Below are positions 2,324-24,044 of a stretch of DNA of 29,411 nt, in pieces. The DNA is from a virus (taxonomy: Duplodnaviria; Caudoviricetes): IMG/VR virus record IMGVR_UViG_3300022930_000026, positions 1 through 29,411 of that record. One strand, given 5' to 3'. The notes beneath the pieces are model-generated. The model worked only from the letters and a program-made list of their open reading frames with translations, had not been told where the DNA came from and made no database searches. Numbering within the stretch: position 1 is the stretch's first letter; the number at the start of each line of letters is the position of its first letter. Position numbers and translations under genes: made by a program.

Positions 2324-3277
2324 TGCAACAACTGTAACCCTTGTAGTATTTGACTTATACAACCTGTTACCTTTTTTAATGATACCGGTTGTAAATGCCA
2401 CGTTGTTCAAACGCAAAGTCAAAACTTGACCGGCAGTAAGGGCTGATGCAACAGCACCTGTATAGTTAAGCGTTGTAGTATCTTGGGTTATCGTACTAAA
2501 AGCAACAACAACACCGTCTTTTGTAAGCTGTAAATCAGCTGGTAACAACCCTCCTAAATCAATTGATTTTTTATCCGCGGCCGTTTTAACTGAAAATATA
2601 ACCGTTGTATCTGTTGCCCCTGGAATAACTTCAAATACTACCTTAGCATCATTCACACCATCTAAGCTTGCATTTCTGATATTGTGTTCAGATGCAACTG
2701 CCCAACCCGCTTCCATATCGAACTCATCACGGTAAAGTTCCTGCAACCATATTCTTGTAAAGGCGTTATCAGCTCCGATAACTTGCTTGTAAGCATCTTT
2801 TCCGAATTGACCAACTGTAAACCCTTTTACGATAGTATTAAGACCTTCTCCGCTTGTGTTGAAGATAATAGAGTTTGCCGAATCCAAGTAAATCACATCG
2901 TAAGAGCCGAATGATTCCAATGTAGCCATAGCCATATCGAAATATAAACCGTTTCTGAATGTGAAAGCAAATGTTCTTGGAGATTTTCCGGTAGTAGTGA
3001 TAATGTTTGTACCTGCATCAGTTGTTTGATTATCGGCTGCCGTCAAATCCTCAACCGCTACAACTTTTGATAATACAACCGCTTTACCTTCTTGCTGTAA
3101 GGTTTGCATATAAGCCAAACTAAAAGCCTCTTCCAATAATGTACCCTGAGGCAACAAAATGATAGTTGATATTAATTTAATGTTGAAGGGGCAGTTATGC
3201 GTTCCCGTTCCCTTGATTCCTGATTGACCGCAATTTATCTTGTAAATTTGGTCTAATAATCCTTGTGATATTGCCAT
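2321..3277 (-). CDS. Major tail (tube) protein
   Basis: 318 aa, beta-rich, N-terminal C...GTG...C segment and an Ig-like C-terminal part ending RVTVVA. Positioned after the head-tail joining genes. Confidence 0.7.
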   Translation of the reverse strand: MAISQGLLDQIYKINCGQSGIKGTGTHNCPFNIKLISTIILLPQGTLLEEAFSLAYMQTLQQEGKAVVLSKVVAVEDLTAADNQTTDAGTNIITTTGKSPRTFAFTFRNGLYFDMAMATLESFGSYDVIYLDSANSIIFNTSGEGLNTIVKGFTVGQFGKDAYKQVIGADNAFTRIWLQELYRDEFDMEAGWAVASEHNIRNASLDGVNDAKVVFEVIPGATDTTVIFSVKTAADKKSIDLGGLLPADLQLTKDGVVVAFSTITQDTTTLNYTGAVASALTAGQVLTLRLNNVAFTTGIIKKGNRLYKSNTTRVTVVA

Positions 3278-16087: not shown

Positions 16088-16324
16088 TTAAACTTCTATT
16101 ACAGAAAAAGGAAGTTCTTCATATATTTTTCTCAATCCTTTCATGTCTTTAGGATAATCATCCGATTTTTGCCATTGAGATTCCCCATTTTTCCTTTCAT
16201 CATCATCCTCACAAATTTCAACCATTTCCCTTTTTACAGCTTCATATTCATTTTCGGAAGAAACTTTAAACTGCTGAACGTCATTGTCGAACATTGAACA
16301 AATTGCTACTACATAATTTTTCAT
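16088..16324 (-). CDS. Hypothetical protein
   Basis: Start revised to MKNYVVAIC (ATG at 16324), which gives an ATGA overlap with the upstream stop. Confidence 0.65.
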   Translation of the reverse strand: MKNYVVAICSMFDNDVQQFKVSSENEYEAVKREMVEICEDDDERKNGESQWQKSDDYPKDMKGLRKIYEELPFSVIEV

Positions 16325-16728
16325 AAAATTGATTTTAATATTACTAATTTTCCTTTTATCACTTTGCTTTCGGCTTGTTGCCATTGCCACTTCATATCTC
16401 TACAGTCTTTTACTGATTCTTCCCCGCATTGACAAAACCCTTTTTCATTTCTTAAACAAGTTACATCTGGCTTTTCAATAGGATTAACGAAATACAATTC
16501 TTTAGACTGTAATAGGCTGTAGAAACTTAATTGGGGATAATCAAAGTATCTTCCTGCTACTGACTTATTCATATAATCTTTGAACCTATAGCAGTTTTCT
16601 AATCTTTCAACATAAGGCTCAACATCAAAAGTAATTTCATCTGCTGTAACTTCTCCGAGTATTTCAATATTTGTTCCGTCATTAATTATTGAAATATCTA
16701 TATACCTATGGTCAAATGAATTAAAATA
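16321..16728 (-). pseudogene. 5'-truncated phage gene abutting the IS end
   Basis: The frame of ORF 16321-16572 stays open for 52 more codons (YFNSFDHRYIDISIINDGTNIEILGEV...RFKDY) up to the IS inverted repeat, with no ATG. It closes at a TAA within the repeat (16741-43). Confidence 0.7.
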
Positions 16729-16751
16729 GGTAAATATATATTATTTTACAC
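16729..16751. repeat. IS terminal inverted repeat (downstream end)
   Basis: 20/23 match to the reverse complement of 19703-19725; the outer 13 bp are identical. Confidence 0.85.
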
Positions 16752-16764
16752 TTAGTAAAACATT

Positions 16765-16795
16765 AAAAACCCCCGAATAATTTTAGAGGGTTTTT
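16765..16795. terminator. Intrinsic terminator after the OMP gene, inside the IS end
   Basis: aaaaaccc...gggttttt hairpin with A/T tails. Confidence 0.65.
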
Positions 16796-16810
16796 ATTTT
16801 ATTTTTTTTA

Positions 16811-17422
16811 TCAAAACTTATATCCTAAACCAAAATATAATATCCTATTATAAGTTGAAACATCATTTTTATATAGATCGTTTAATCCATAGATGTAATT
16901 AGCATCTATAAAAGCGCCTCTGTATATTTCAAATTCTATTCCTGTTGTCAATCCGTAATCTGTTTTTGTAATTTGGTTTGATATATCTAAAGTTTCCTTT
17001 TCATTTATCGATGCAATAGATGCATCTATTTTATAATCAAGTACTGTTCCTATATAACATCCTGCTCGCAATGAAAGTCTATCTGTAAAATAATATTTTG
17101 CGGTGGTAAGTAAATTGAGTTGATTAGAATTATAATCTGCCTTTATTAATACAGGAGCGTCATCTTCATTTTCTCTATATTCGTCTTTGTCTGTTGTATA
17201 TCCAATTTTAATGTAATTTAATTCTGCATTTATTGCAAATTTTGAAAACTTATACTCACCATAAAAACCAAATGAAAAAGATTGCTTTGAATCAACTTTA
17301 AAATAAGAGTCCCTATCAACGGATGTAATTGCAATATATGCTTTTGGGGCAAACTTAAATTGAGAATAGGAAAACGAACATGACATCAAAATAAAGATCA
17401 ATATTATGCTTAATTTTTTCAT
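16811..17422 (-). CDS. Outer-membrane beta-barrel protein (PorT/porin family, OMP_b-brl_2-like)
   Basis: Sec signal peptide, amphipathic beta strands (FSFGFYGEYKF, AELNYIKIG, DYGLTTGIEF, IDANYIYGL) and a C-terminal beta-signal YFGLGYKF. Confidence 0.88.
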   Translation of the reverse strand: MKKLSIILIFILMSCSFSYSQFKFAPKAYIAITSVDRDSYFKVDSKQSFSFGFYGEYKFSKFAINAELNYIKIGYTTDKDEYRENEDDAPVLIKADYNSNQLNLLTTAKYYFTDRLSLRAGCYIGTVLDYKIDASIASINEKETLDISNQITKTDYGLTTGIEFEIYRGAFIDANYIYGLNDLYKNDVSTYNRILYFGLGYKF

Positions 17423-17714
17423 AAAAATGGTGTTTTATTTTATCGCACCATTCCCAAAAGCGAAGTTAGTTTATATTAAAAAAGCGTGGGTCTGTAGCCT
17501 TTATTCAGTCAGAGGCTTCCGACGGCCCACACACAAACAAGTACAACAACACCCACGCCAAAGCGTGAGCATCAGTCTTGTTTAATCGGTGTGTGTGAAA
17601 TTGTCGGAATTCCTGACACGAGTAAACAGCTAACGCTAATATTTTATATCCGATTGATCGGAAACCATTAAAAAGTAATCTAAATCAAGGTAGATGGCTT
17701 GGGGCTATCTCTTG
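17423..17714 (-). ncRNA. Structured 5' leader / candidate cis-regulatory RNA of the OMP gene
   Basis: A long interrupted hairpin at 17483-17637 plus three smaller hairpins, between a -7 box and the OMP start. No sizeable ORF. Confidence 0.65.
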
Positions 17715-17722
17715 CAAATATA
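17715..17722 (-). promoter_or_regulatory. -7 promoter box for the leader and OMP gene
   Basis: Minus-strand TATATTTG, just after the P63C stop codon. Confidence 0.6.
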
Positions 17723-17728
17723 TAAATT

Positions 17729-18721
17729 CTATTCTTTCTTCTTTGGGTTAAAACTCAATCCCTTTTTTAATTTAACATTAAAATCAGATAATTCAATAGT
17801 TCCTTTATCTTCTATTTTCTTTGGCTCAATCATAGATGCGGTTTCATCGTTAAAAAGTTCTTGTTGACCAAATTTTTTATTCCAGAGCTTTTCGAACTGT
17901 TTCCAGTTGTCCGAAACATTCATCAATGTTACCACACTAACTATTTGTTTATTTAGATGATCTATTCCTTCTTCTCGTGTTAAGTTTTGATGTAGTTTGT
18001 GTTTTAGTTTTCCTTTTTCATTTCTACTTGTTCTTTGTAATAAAGCTTGTAATACCCCTTTAGGTAAAGGCTGATAAATGAATTTTTTAGTCCAAGTTCC
18101 TATTATACCAGGCCTACCTGCCTTATTGATCTCAGGAGTAGTAAAATACCAATTATTAAGTCTAAATATTTCCCTGTAAAACTCATCAGGAAATCTTTTT
18201 TTCCATGGTAAAAGTTCTTCACTTATATACCTTTTTAGTATTTTTTGTAATTCATCATTTTCTCTATCATATTGGTATCCTGTAGCTTCATCAACCAAAG
18301 CCATAATACCAATTTTAGAAAGACTCCTTACTAATATCTCTGAAGCCTGAGCTAAAGGTAATTGAGCGGATTTTAATACTTTTTCCTGCCTAGCTTGTAA
18401 ATAAACATCACAAAGTAATGGTATTATTACTGCCTCATATCCTGAATTTGGCTTTCCTTTTATATCCAGATAATCTATCTGTTTGAGCACGCCTCTTAAT
18501 TCCTCATTAATAAAGGGTTGTAGGTTATTTGCATCTATAAAACTAGGCATATTGAGCACCCTTACTTCATCCTTTTTTCTTCCTCTTTTAGTTCTTCCAA
18601 ATGCTCTAAAAACAGCACTACCTGAAATAACTCTTTTTCCGTCCTCTAATACATAACAGTTTAATAGGGACTCTCCAATTACAAGTTCTCCCTCGTGAGT
18701 TGCTTTTAGTAGTTTATCCAT
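17729..18721 (-). CDS. P63C domain protein (phage Mx8 p63 C-terminal family)
   Basis: Hallmarks KATHEGELVIG...CYVLEDGKRVIS and GIMALVDEATGYQYDRENDELQKIL...WKKRFPDEFYREIFRL...KLHQNLT. Overlaps the transposase stop. Confidence 0.88.
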   Translation of the reverse strand: MDKLLKATHEGELVIGESLLNCYVLEDGKRVISGSAVFRAFGRTKRGRKKDEVRVLNMPSFIDANNLQPFINEELRGVLKQIDYLDIKGKPNSGYEAVIIPLLCDVYLQARQEKVLKSAQLPLAQASEILVRSLSKIGIMALVDEATGYQYDRENDELQKILKRYISEELLPWKKRFPDEFYREIFRLNNWYFTTPEINKAGRPGIIGTWTKKFIYQPLPKGVLQALLQRTSRNEKGKLKHKLHQNLTREEGIDHLNKQIVSVVTLMNVSDNWKQFEKLWNKKFGQQELFNDETASMIEPKKIEDKGTIELSDFNVKLKKGLSFNPKKKE

Positions 18722-19640
18722 TTATCAACATTTTATAAGTTATACGATTTTCCATATTCAAAAGTAATTTTGTAAATCTAGTGAATTGTGTTTCTTTTCT
18801 CAAATTGTATCTGAAAACAAATTCGTTTACATATTTCTGCATGTGCTTTCTGCTCCACCAATTATAAATACCGTTGTATCCTCTTTTCAAAATAGACCAA
18901 AATCCCTCTATTGAATTGCTGTGTATTTCTGGATTATCAAAGTCAACATATTGTTTCTTTGAGTGATCAACAATGTGGTGGTCATAATCCGAATGAAGTC
19001 CGTTATATCCCATCCATTCATCAGAAATGAAAACACTGTCCTTTGCAACGTTTCTTCTTATAATTGGCTGTAATGTCTTAGCCTGGGTGTTTGGAACTAC
19101 AAACGCCCTAACATTTCCATCACGTTGCAACAAACCAAGAACCGGAGTCTTATCCTTGAAGCTTCTACCTTGTGACTGTTCAACCTTTTTATCCTTGTGT
19201 CGGTTCTTATTCTTACCGCCTACAAATGTTTCATCAGATTCAATTATACCATCCAACTTATCATTATCATCAAATCCAAAACAGTTTCTGATCCTCTGCA
19301 ACAAAAACCAAGCGGTTTTCTGTGTAACTCCAATTTCATTGCTCAATTGAACCGATGAAATGCCTTTCTTGAACGATGTGCATATCCATATAGCAAGAAA
19401 CCATTTCTGCAACTCTATCTTAGTGTTGTCAAAAATGGTATCCGTTTTAACGTTAAAGTATTTTCCTGTGTTCCTACAACGGTATTTATTACCCTTGCAT
19501 TTGTAAACGCTCGACAAAGAATCAAAAGGGCTTATAACAATTCCCTCCCATCTCAATTCCTCCAAATGATCTATACAGGTTTGTTCGTCAGGAAAAGCCT
19601 TTATTAATTCTAAAACCGTTTTTATATCTTTGTTGAACAT
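18714..19640 (-). CDS. IS1595-family (ISXO2-like) DDE transposase
   Basis: Zn-ribbon-like N-terminus, HTH (GISSVQLSNEIGVTQKTAWFLLQRIR), catalytic ESDETFVGG / SDEW / HSNSIEGFWSILKR and YVNEFVFRYN. Start set at MFNKD (19640), downstream of the promoter box. Confidence 0.93.
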   Translation of the reverse strand: MFNKDIKTVLELIKAFPDEQTCIDHLEELRWEGIVISPFDSLSSVYKCKGNKYRCRNTGKYFNVKTDTIFDNTKIELQKWFLAIWICTSFKKGISSVQLSNEIGVTQKTAWFLLQRIRNCFGFDDNDKLDGIIESDETFVGGKNKNRHKDKKVEQSQGRSFKDKTPVLGLLQRDGNVRAFVVPNTQAKTLQPIIRRNVAKDSVFISDEWMGYNGLHSDYDHHIVDHSKKQYVDFDNPEIHSNSIEGFWSILKRGYNGIYNWWSRKHMQKYVNEFVFRYNLRKETQFTRFTKLLLNMENRITYKMLING

Positions 19641-19662
19641 TTTACCGTTTTTAATAACAGCA

Positions 19663-19692
19663 CAAATATAGTAGATAAATACACAAAACAAA
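19663..19692 (-). promoter_or_regulatory. Transposase promoter (-7 and -33 boxes)
   Basis: Minus-strand TATATTTG (19663-70) and TTTG (19689-92), 18-nt spacer, just inside the inverted repeat. Confidence 0.6.
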
Positions 19693-19702
19693 AATTATTG
19701 TT

Positions 19703-19725
19703 GTGTAATTTTATATATATTTACC
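19703..19725. repeat. IS terminal inverted repeat (transposase-upstream end)
   Basis: Partner of 16729-16751; it also supplies the TAA of the neighbouring phage gene. Confidence 0.85.
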
Positions 19726-20176
19726 TTTGGTATTTGGTTATAGCGGATTCAGTTAGGGTTAAATTTCGTTTGGCTAGGTTTTCAATATATTTTGAATTGG
19801 AATAAATCCTCCAATAATTTGCCTCTTTTATAAAAATATCCGCAACAGTTTCTTGAAACCATCCTTCATTATCATATTCTCTTTTTTCTATCTGAAACCC
19901 CTCAAATATTACATTCTGTAAAGCTTCATCATATCTAACTTTTCTAGTACTATAATTTAACGCATCAGTTGTATTTTGTCTTATTATTGGCTCTTCTAAA
20001 ACATTACCATCTTCATCTACTGGAATAAACATTCCAAGCGTTAAAGGCATTGAAAGAAATTTGGCGTAATTCCAAACTCTTTCTCTAAATTCTTCTGAGG
20101 TGATTTCTTCTTTTAAGAACAAATTGTATTGCTCCAAAACATAATCTACCATTGATTTTAAAATCCTTTTTTCCAT
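19721..20176 (-). CDS. Hypothetical phage protein, C-terminus clipped by the IS
   Basis: 151 aa (NYAKFLSMPLTLGMFIPVDEDGNVLEEP). The final A-GG TAA comes from the IS repeat. Confidence 0.75.
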   Translation of the reverse strand: MEKRILKSMVDYVLEQYNLFLKEEITSEEFRERVWNYAKFLSMPLTLGMFIPVDEDGNVLEEPIIRQNTTDALNYSTRKVRYDEALQNVIFEGFQIEKREYDNEGWFQETVADIFIKEANYWRIYSNSKYIENLAKRNLTLTESAITKYQR

Positions 20177-23138: not shown

Positions 23139-24044
23139 TTATAAATTACTTAAAATTTCCTTGTAACTATTTTCTGAAAAGTTAATTTCTTTTTCGGTTG
23201 GACTTCTTTGTAAATCATTTGTTCCGCAATATCCGTTACAATCCACTAATGGTTCAACTTTGCATTCTGGCATTTCGTCAATACATTTTATTTCGGGATA
23301 ATCTTTATTTTTAACCAAAAACACCAGATTTGCTTTAGGGTTTATTTTAGCTTTTGCGGTCGCTTCCTTGCTTTGGTCTTTTAGCATAGTTACGGGTTCT
23401 CCTGCTAATTTCGTAAGTTGGTGTTCAATTACTGCCATTCTTAAAAACTTGAAATAAAAGTCACGTTTCATTTTTTGCCAATATCCAATACCGCCTTGAA
23501 CGCAACCAGTTCCAAAACAATTATTATTAAGAAATCCTAAATAGTACATCAATGGAATTGCTATAAATTCATTTCTCAAATATTCAATGCAATCTTTTTT
23601 TGATAGTCCGTGAAGCATTAAAGTAAATATCCCTTTAGCGTTTGGATGGTTTTTAACCAACCCAATAACCCTTTTTGATTCTGAAATATCAAATCCAAAT
23701 ACCTGATGAACATAATTAAAATTGTTTTCCTTTTCCCATTTCTCACGAACTAATCTTTTTAATTGTGTAGAACATATTGCACCTGTCGAAACGTTTAAGG
23801 ACTTGAACGCAAACCAAACATCTTGAATTCTTTTATATTCTGAACCAATTCCAGAAATGGTTTCTATTTCTATACCATACCATTTTTGACAATCATCTTT
23901 AAATCGGTAAGTATCTGGATGTTCATTAAATGTATCTATAAAAATAATCCTAATTCTATCATTTCCGAATAATTCAATTGCCAGCCAAATTGCAACGGCA
24001 CTTGTTACACCACCACTCCACCAACAAATTATATCTTTTTTCAT
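23139..24044 (-). CDS. PP-loop adenine nucleotide alpha-hydrolase (PAPS-reductase-like) protein
   Basis: N-terminal WWSGGVTSAVA PP-loop, IDTFNEHPDTYRF, CSTQLKR, Cys cluster NNNCFGTGCVQGG and C-terminal CNGYC. Confidence 0.8.
   Translation of the reverse strand: MKKDIICWWSGGVTSAVAIWLAIELFGNDRIRIIFIDTFNEHPDTYRFKDDCQKWYGIEIETISGIGSEYKRIQDVWFAFKSLNVSTGAICSTQLKRLVREKWEKENNFNYVHQVFGFDISESKRVIGLVKNHPNAKGIFTLMLHGLSKKDCIEYLRNEFIAIPLMYYLGFLNNNCFGTGCVQGGIGYWQKMKRDFYFKFLRMAVIEHQLTKLAGEPVTMLKDQSKEATAKAKINPKANLVFLVKNKDYPEIKCIDEMPECKVEPLVDCNGYCGTNDLQRSPTEKEINFSENSYKEILSNL

Follow-up and report, generated by a model that had tools for sequence, protein, structure and literature searches.

The IS1595-family element of the window and its leader stretch

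The DNA analysed here, called the window, is a stretch of 29,411 nucleotides that covers positions 1 to 29,411 of an IMG/VR virus record (IMGVR_UViG_3300022930_000026; Duplodnaviria, Caudoviricetes) and in which terminase, portal and capsid genes are present. An IS1595-family element spans 16729-19725 and comprises a transposase gene, a P63C gene, a leader stretch and an outer-membrane (OMP) beta-barrel gene, with all genes on the minus strand (Table 1). An ISXO2-like transposase and inverted repeats that enclose the cargo identify it as an IS1595 element with passenger genes. The 8-bp target duplication is not recognizable at this element, where only 2 of 8 positions agree; it is perfect at the IS1595 elements of three other loci (L082, L098 and L131). 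At one end the element reaches into the stop codon of ORF 19721-20176 (at 19721-19735), and the frame of ORF 16321-16572, judged by eye, continues through 16573-16728 to the other end. Since the duplication is lacking and ORFs overlap or run on at the two ends, the flanks may derive from different genes, as after an adjacent deletion. No empty insertion site was found in one DNA sequencing run, a possible source of this DNA. A related IS1595 and P63C element in another viral contig (L007, 3016-6030) has different cargo, an 8-bp duplication and no leader.

The OMP cargo protein has one relative, at 56% identity. Directly past its stop codon lies a hairpin with U-rich arms (16765-16795, minus strand) that by eye looks like a terminator inside the element. 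Elsewhere in the window, a DUF805b RNA motif at gathering score is placed between two small phage genes (12698-12730, minus strand), and a gene with a PAPS-reductase domain (23139-24044) is found among phage replication genes.

Table 1. Features of the IS1595-family element and of its leader, in window coordinates.
Feature	Position	Strand	Remarks
Terminal inverted repeat, cargo end	16729..16751	.	identical to the other end at 19/22
Outer-membrane beta-barrel cargo gene	16811..17422	-	203 aa; signal-peptide-like N-terminus; PF13568, PF13505
E/F hairpin adjoining the start codon	17426..17456	-	z -2.43; E UGGG (17456-), F 17432-17426
U6 tract after D	17478..17483	-	read in sequence
SL2, second long stem-loop, predicted terminator	17484..17559	-	z -2.25; C:D closed in 82/82 representatives
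Segment B	17563..17570	-	rod partner of C (predicted antiterminator hairpin); 98% of cells paired
SL1, first long stem-loop	17568..17637	-	z -2.69; closed this way in 81/82 representatives
Non-conserved 5' spacer with two local hairpins	17640..17714	-	z -0.95; hairpins absent from 5/5 closest relatives checked
Bacteroidota sigma-70 '-7' box (TAnnTTTG), likely leader promoter	17715..17722	-	starts 85 nt before A
P63C-domain passenger gene	17729..18721	-	PF10546
IS1595-family (ISXO2-like) transposase gene	18714..19691	-	PF12762
Terminal inverted repeat, transposase end	19703..19725	.	matches the cargo-end repeat

The minus strand of 17423-17714 folds at -85 kcal/mol (z -4.81), and none of 200 shuffles folded as well. 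The minimum free energy (MFE) structure is a nested rod capped by GCUCACGC-UUUG-GCGUGGGU, as a sequence-only reading of the locus had proposed. For five pairings that reading gave the coordinates of both arms, and all five are exact reverse complements; tagc/gcta and cacacac/gtgtgtg lie where it had placed them. The alternative pairing that it had pointed out, GCGUGGGU with ACCCACGC ahead of the U6 tract, is also present, and forcing this pair gives a complete second fold at -70.0 against -84.7 kcal/mol. Two further hairpins that it had noted upstream, at 17649-62 and 17686-714, do exist in the window copy but are not conserved, and this upstream part is no more stable than its shuffles (z -0.95). 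The plus strand of the same stretch also folds well (z -4.64). Because both strands do so, the strand of the leader was decided from its homologs, in 78/82 of which the sense strand is the more stable one.

The conserved element comprises minus-strand positions 17637-17478 and the hairpin zone up to the ATG. What the sequence-only reading had missed is that the 5' half forms a stem-loop of its own, SL1, whose loop is complementary to that of the 3' half. SL1 is closed by segment A (17637-17629) on GAUGCU (17573-17568) and exposes the apical loop L1 (UUCCGAC, 17609-17603). SL2 is closed by segment C (17558-17551) on segment D (17491-17484), and its apical loop L2 (17523-17516) is complementary to L1. 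Segment E, next to the start codon, has D as an alternative partner, although D:E amounts to only 4 bp in the window copy. From the stop codon of the P63C gene to the start codon of the OMP gene, the only minus-strand match to TAnnTTTG is the one in Table 1, which we take to be the -7 element of Bacteroidota promoters; a SigA call for the Flavobacterium psychrophilum copy confirms this assignment. The window holds no second copy of the leader, and no counter-promoter of TAnnTTTG type is found on the plus strand of this one.

A leader family with two conserved folds

The leader had no match in Rfam, either at gathering thresholds or at E 10, for the window or for 20 homolog loci, and this includes C4 antisense RNA, c4-a1b1 and sRNA-Xcc1. 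Searches of phage and plasmid collections with blastn were also negative for the leader, and scanning viral contigs for exact 16-mers returned six matches, all due to chance. By contrast, blastn against 401 genomes of Flavobacterium, the genus of genome G001, returned 16 places in 13 genomes, of which 13 places in 11 genomes proved on inspection to be true homologs and three to be short chance matches. Scanning a class sample, metagenomes and viral contigs for the pattern yielded further copies. With a sequence-only HMM, 148 matches were obtained; removal of the duplicate of the window, nine other duplicates, nine partial copies and 12 without all anchors left 117 distinct copies, from which 82 representatives at <85% identity were drawn. 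Pattern matches without the 5' half, for example in ribonucleotide-reductase coding sequence (L050, L142), were dropped by this model. A second sequence-only model aligned 68 of the 82 representatives and excluded 14, mostly length outliers. The leader family is widespread in Bacteroidota and absent from Rfam: copies occur in 21/151 genomes sampled across the phylum and in 34/151 sampled in the family, with at most seven matches per genome.

The copies are built on four short conserved segments, A, B, C and D, followed by a U-rich tract, which has at least six T within 8 nt past D in 59/82 homologs and five or fewer in 23/82. An ATG is present at B in 72/82, but the frames that it opens run for 3-92 codons and are not conserved; a leader peptide was therefore ruled out, and pairing with A explains the ATG. 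Past the U-tract, GGG is found in 59/62 copies with a nearby ORF, against 12 expected, and this flank covaries with the bases 5' of D (D:E; 0/10000 permutations). The E:F pairing is confined to a subset that includes the window copy (medians -3.2 vs -3.0).

The leader has two mutually exclusive conserved folds, either the tandem stem-loops SL1 and SL2 or one long rod. The whole leader folds as a rod with B:C at its tip in the MFE structure of 78/82 representatives; the rod lies below the sum of SL1 and SL2 by a median of 10.6 kcal/mol and, in prefix folding, already wins before D is synthesised. The tandem fold is as regular, with SL2 alone at z<-2 in 81/82. In a MAFFT alignment, 88.6% of the cells of the rod are paired and 26 of its 42 pairs have changed on both sides, with 389 double changes against 119 in shuffles (0/500 shuffles for both cells and score; kinship uncorrected). 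The corresponding values for the tandem fold, likewise uncorrected for kinship, are 81.8% of cells paired and 218 double changes against 124 (0/500). Across the 68 aligned rows, L1 and L2 occur in about 40 different sequence combinations that keep them complementary. When each arm was paired with its own partner and with those of other members, own partners were preferred for b:c (z -22), L1:L2 (-22), a:d (-15), a:b (-10) and c:d (-8.7), while the control arm pairs a:c and b:d gave no such preference. Own arms also pair better than shuffled own arms. The arms of the tandem fold give the weaker signal, own beating nearest neighbour in 45/68. The claim that terminator-like and non-terminator folds exclude each other is thus borne out by the homologs, in which both the rod and the tandem fold covary.

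Divergent copies fit this arrangement. In L209, L238 and L241, B, C and D are altered together, and in L105 and L132 (about 2490-2700, minus strand) an extra SL1 hairpin is inserted, so that the SL1 and the rod pairings have separate partners. It is important to note that C:D is not the only candidate terminator helix, since the A:D helix of the rod also abuts the U-tract and the B:C hairpin scores as terminator-like on its own.

Cargo genes, mobile elements and the dCas12f-associated subfamily

A TAnnTTTG box is present within 80 nt upstream of A in 50/79 homologs, against one on the reverse strand and 4.6 in shuffles. A same-strand ORF follows in 66/79 (14/53 in controls), mostly 54-79 nt past D, and the downstream proteins have a hydrophobic N-terminus in 53/67 cases, compared with 37/110 of neighbouring ORFs. 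The proteins themselves are diverse. Pfam matches were obtained for 21/87 downstream genes and belong to unrelated families (TM2, DUF4468, T9SS tail, OMP barrel, Sel1, GmrSD and others), and even close relatives of the window leader are followed by different genes. The envelope-protein rule is broken in L046, L136 and L182, where the leader is followed directly by GmrSD-type restriction genes. An IS1595 transposase is encoded near 11/41 copies with enough flank, and at 3 of 18 other IS1595 loci the leader is enclosed by both element ends and a perfect 8-bp duplication; genes of integrases and of phages are also often found nearby. The cis-regulatory position and the mobilisation within a cassette, both suggested for the window copy, are therefore supported by its homologs. 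Most copies lie outside dCas12f loci, where the leader would be a portable control module that has been linked again and again to new genes for secreted or membrane proteins, on IS1595 elements, integrative elements and phages.

Leaders of a sister subfamily have a small, divergently oriented hth gene on one side and a SusC-like gene on the other (SusC in 24/24 downstream ORFs tested), and in them a G at the position equivalent to 17559 together with C constitutes the TAM and seed of dCas12f. In L253, L280, L281 and L285 the leader precedes an ECF sigma gene (rpoE) and a 365-aa gene, cut by the locus end in L253; the 365-aa protein of L285 matches dCas12f (PDB 9n9c, E 6e-201). In L281 and L285 the guide RNA behind dcas12f finishes with C and the 7 bases that follow it in the leader, whereas that of L280 does not, and 17/24 guide copies collected start with GCGTG or GTGTG within three bases. 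Of five published guides, that of Chryseobacterium gleum starts at C, two start with C-like sequence, one starts with the bases directly past C and one is unrelated (PMC13472631). Other conserved targets exist, since some dCas12f guides (L280:3275-3380; the AAAAGCCTTCCC type) match no leader collected. With 18 distinct guides tried, a guide match of at least 10 bases was found in 52/65 hth-type and 6/144 cargo-type copies, types being set by the 5' pattern with a few copies misfiled.

An abundant hth-associated ncRNA has been reported, whose 5' end coincides with the guide's 5' edge and whose role and promoter are given as unknown; its authors guess a negative regulator (Hoffmann 2026; PMC13472631). 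Members of the present family occupy the position of this RNA, between hth and either rpoE-dcas12f or susC and on the same strand as the gene, and their 5' end, preceded by a G as TAM, is similar to the seed of dCas12f guides. Guides that start at C likewise start at the reported 5' end of the ncRNA (PMC13472631; preprint PMC12259090). On position and sequence, the published RNA is very probably SL2 of this leader family. The paper describes one RNA; in the family it would correspond to the 3' half of a two-state leader that is driven by a promoter. The main text of Hoffmann 2026 contains no word on attenuation, riboswitches or processing and uses a terminator term once, for a reporter cassette (PMC13472631); the ncRNA goes unmentioned in the companion preprint on the structure. 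In our literature search this leader was nowhere described, and the term hth-associated ncRNA appeared only in Hoffmann 2026. The novelty is lower than the sequence-only reading had supposed, as the 3' half very likely is the published ncRNA. What the sequences would add is the promoter, the missing 5' half, the two-state switch and a much wider cargo-linked branch.

According to the published account, RNA-guided initiation takes place 46 bp from the TAM, a guide match of >10 nt is needed, and rpoE and dcas12f are lowly expressed (Hoffmann 2026; PMC13472631). A start 46 nt after the TAM falls inside SL2, 13-33 nt before D, and in transcripts begun there D is computed to be mostly unpaired in 69/82. 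The window copy differs from the hth-associated loci in having no hth gene, an IS1595 setting and the extra E/F module. Its best match to the guides is 8 contiguous bases (11/14 overall; the G plus 8 matching bases), short of the >10 nt, so that it probably works without a dCas12f bypass. One query for dCas12f found none in five leader-carrying Flavobacterium genomes, in a search run without a positive control. As a side observation, the hth-type leaders L213, L214 and L215 (G312) are interrupted just past GCGTGGG, and the foreign sequence that follows there, at contig ends, is the same in all three. It is probably an insertion sequence for which segment C, the seed of dCas12f, is a hotspot.

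Transcription data are available for one copy. The leader of G001 (L219), a hth-type copy with a diverged D, agrees in sequence and susC spacing with Rfp50 (THC0290_N_0788) of F. psychrophilum THCO2-90, a member of the same family that is listed only as an independent transcribed region (PMC9723704). Rfp50 starts at a SigA TSS (Guerin 2021; PMC9723704) and its signal is log2 6.1-11.0 in all arrays, against 3.9-6.3 for its susC, which is silent in these data. A second 5' end (10 reads, no sigma motif), missing from the putative-TSS sheet (PMC9723704), maps to the first base of the B:C loop, between SL1 and SL2. The annotated transcript is 519 nt long and extends past the predicted terminator to just before susC, its end is overlapped by an antisense RNA, Rfp51, and the supplements give no coordinate near the U-tract for Rfp50 (Guerin 2021; PMC9723704). 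Rfp51 could explain the silent susC.

Proposed switch and competing explanations

The stretch in the window is a real, folded and conserved 5' leader of the OMP cargo gene. Its layout, a terminator helix with a U-tract and an overlapping alternative helix, is that of an intrinsic-terminator attenuator. As to its function, we favour at about an even chance a model in which a two-state terminator/antiterminator leader releases SL2, which would repress in trans like the CI RNA of phage P4; termination, processing and action in trans are what we infer. In a transcript driven by the promoter, SL1 would form first. Unaided, C would invade SL1 through B as a toehold and produce the rod, which would leave D's 5' half available for pairing with E and open the start region (ON). 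In a cell that already contains mature SL2 RNA, the loop of this RNA would kiss L1 of the nascent RNA and keep SL1 occupied, nascent C would pair with D, and transcription would stop (OFF). The stopped transcripts would be cut between B and C and yield more SL2, a negative feedback under which the cargo could be expressed in a burst upon entry into a naive cell. The OFF state needs a trans factor or a kinetic trap, because the rod is the more stable fold and prevails in prefix folding. It is also conceivable that ON and OFF are assigned to the two folds the other way round. Computed interactions agree with private recognition: SL2 in trans binds its own SL1 with a median of -12 kcal/mol and with more than 5 kcal/mol in 74/82, but the SL1 of another member with more than 5 kcal/mol in only 4/82.

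In the hth/susC subfamily, dCas12f-sigmaE would bind DNA at C and start 46 bp downstream, inside SL2, and this start would bypass the terminator since an RNA without C could not form C:D. This gives a concrete reason why natural guides use one fixed site: a start there would omit the strand needed by the stop hairpin. It is possible, although we lean somewhat against the statement in its full breadth, that a phylum-wide self-antisense attenuator gates the surface-protein genes of mobile elements, with its loops as a private immunity code, and that dCas12f-sigmaE evolved as a key to it, its guide copying the 5' strand of the terminator and its start 46 bp downstream jumping it.

Same-strand self-antisense control has precedents in IsrK of Gifsy-1 and in SeqA/CI of P4, which resemble the leader in combining antisense unit and target in one transcript, two structures and a short trans-acting RNA (PMC4825925). 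No sequence similarity to either was found, there is no third, seqC-like site, and IsrK activates translation while the predicted effect of SL2 is to promote termination. C4 immunity, too, has its antisense unit and the complementary target on a single transcript, as does the leader family, but the family differs from P4 CI/C4 immunity in having no conserved leader ORF (icd/kil/orf45) and no antirepressor or replication genes downstream. C4 (RF01695) and c4-a1b1 share with it a GG-loop-CC hairpin, a variable address loop of 6-8 nt and an association with mobile elements (Weinberg 2010; PMC2864571). They are proteobacterial, whereas the leader belongs to Bacteroidota and envelope-protein cargo; no separate upstream a1b1 copy was seen beside it. 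In plasmid antisense-RNA attenuators such as pT181 and pIP501, loop-loop recognition sets terminator versus antiterminator. The leader has its antisense unit on the same strand, unlike this type.

The same folds and terminator might act purely in cis, set by folding kinetics, pausing at B:C, temperature or a protein of host or phage; in that case the leader would be a portable dampener of envelope-protein expression and SL2 a stable decay product. The cis rod requires L1:L2 complementarity anyway, copies in one genome share loops, and B:C followed by the U-rich arm resembles a pause site; moreover, neither HTH nor ncRNA was needed in E. coli reporters (PMC13472631). We nonetheless consider this explanation unlikely, if well worth keeping in mind, as complementary loops exposed on separate stem-loops are what kissing in trans requires, the 3' half is reported as highly abundant (PMC13472631), and loops are diverse among cargo-type copies (99/144 not of the common type) but shared among hth-type ones (54/65), with the few misfiled copies noted above. 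An IsrK-like translational switch, in which the rod is silent, a short 5' RNA (SL1, ending at B:C) activates in trans and D:E and E:F gate ribosome access, appears improbable. IsrK has such a polarity (PMC4825925), and the rod as MFE structure, the strong D:E covariation and the terminator-like B:C would suit it. However, the abundant species is reported to start at C and not at A, hth-type copies mostly lack E (GGG in 11/65) and lie 250-900 nt from the gene, and C:D with the U-tract is the most conserved part.

The sequence-only reading had left the choice between a riboswitch or attenuator and a standalone ncRNA. The listing of Rfp50 as an independent transcript (PMC9723704) and the report of an abundant ncRNA (PMC13472631) could mean that SL2 is in the main a small RNA in its own right, directed at other targets or serving as a decoy, with SL1 as its processing or sequestering partner. 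This is quite improbable given the same-strand gene at fixed spacing in 66/79, the covariation with E beside the start codon, and loops that match their own SL1 only. A small RNA probably does accumulate from the 3' half, which makes the idea of a standalone ncRNA half right, but this half belongs to an mRNA leader. The attenuator is likely and the riboswitch is not. For a metabolite-sensing riboswitch speak the terminator/antiterminator layout and the SusC transporters downstream of all hth-type copies tested; a ligand is nevertheless unsupported, because the invariant bases lie within the A, B, C and D helices and serve several alternative pairings, leaving no conserved unpaired pocket, the loops vary, and the cargo-type genes share no pathway, so that we give this reading very little weight. 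Least credible of all is a DNA-level structure, a single-stranded hairpin for recombination or transposition, to which the good folding of both strands and the frequent location inside IS1595 elements might point: G-U pairs are kept on the sense strand (an invariant U-G in B:C; 12% vs 7%), promoter and ORF have a polarity, the F. psychrophilum copy is transcribed, and the leader is not at the element ends.

Under the model that we favour, orthogonal loop pairs could serve as regulatory parts for Bacteroidota. No signal of incompatibility between copies of the same genome was seen, as they often share their loops. Paired leader copies 0.25-1.6 kb apart occur in L062, L089, L109, L126, L115, L238 and L291, and some of them differ in their loops.
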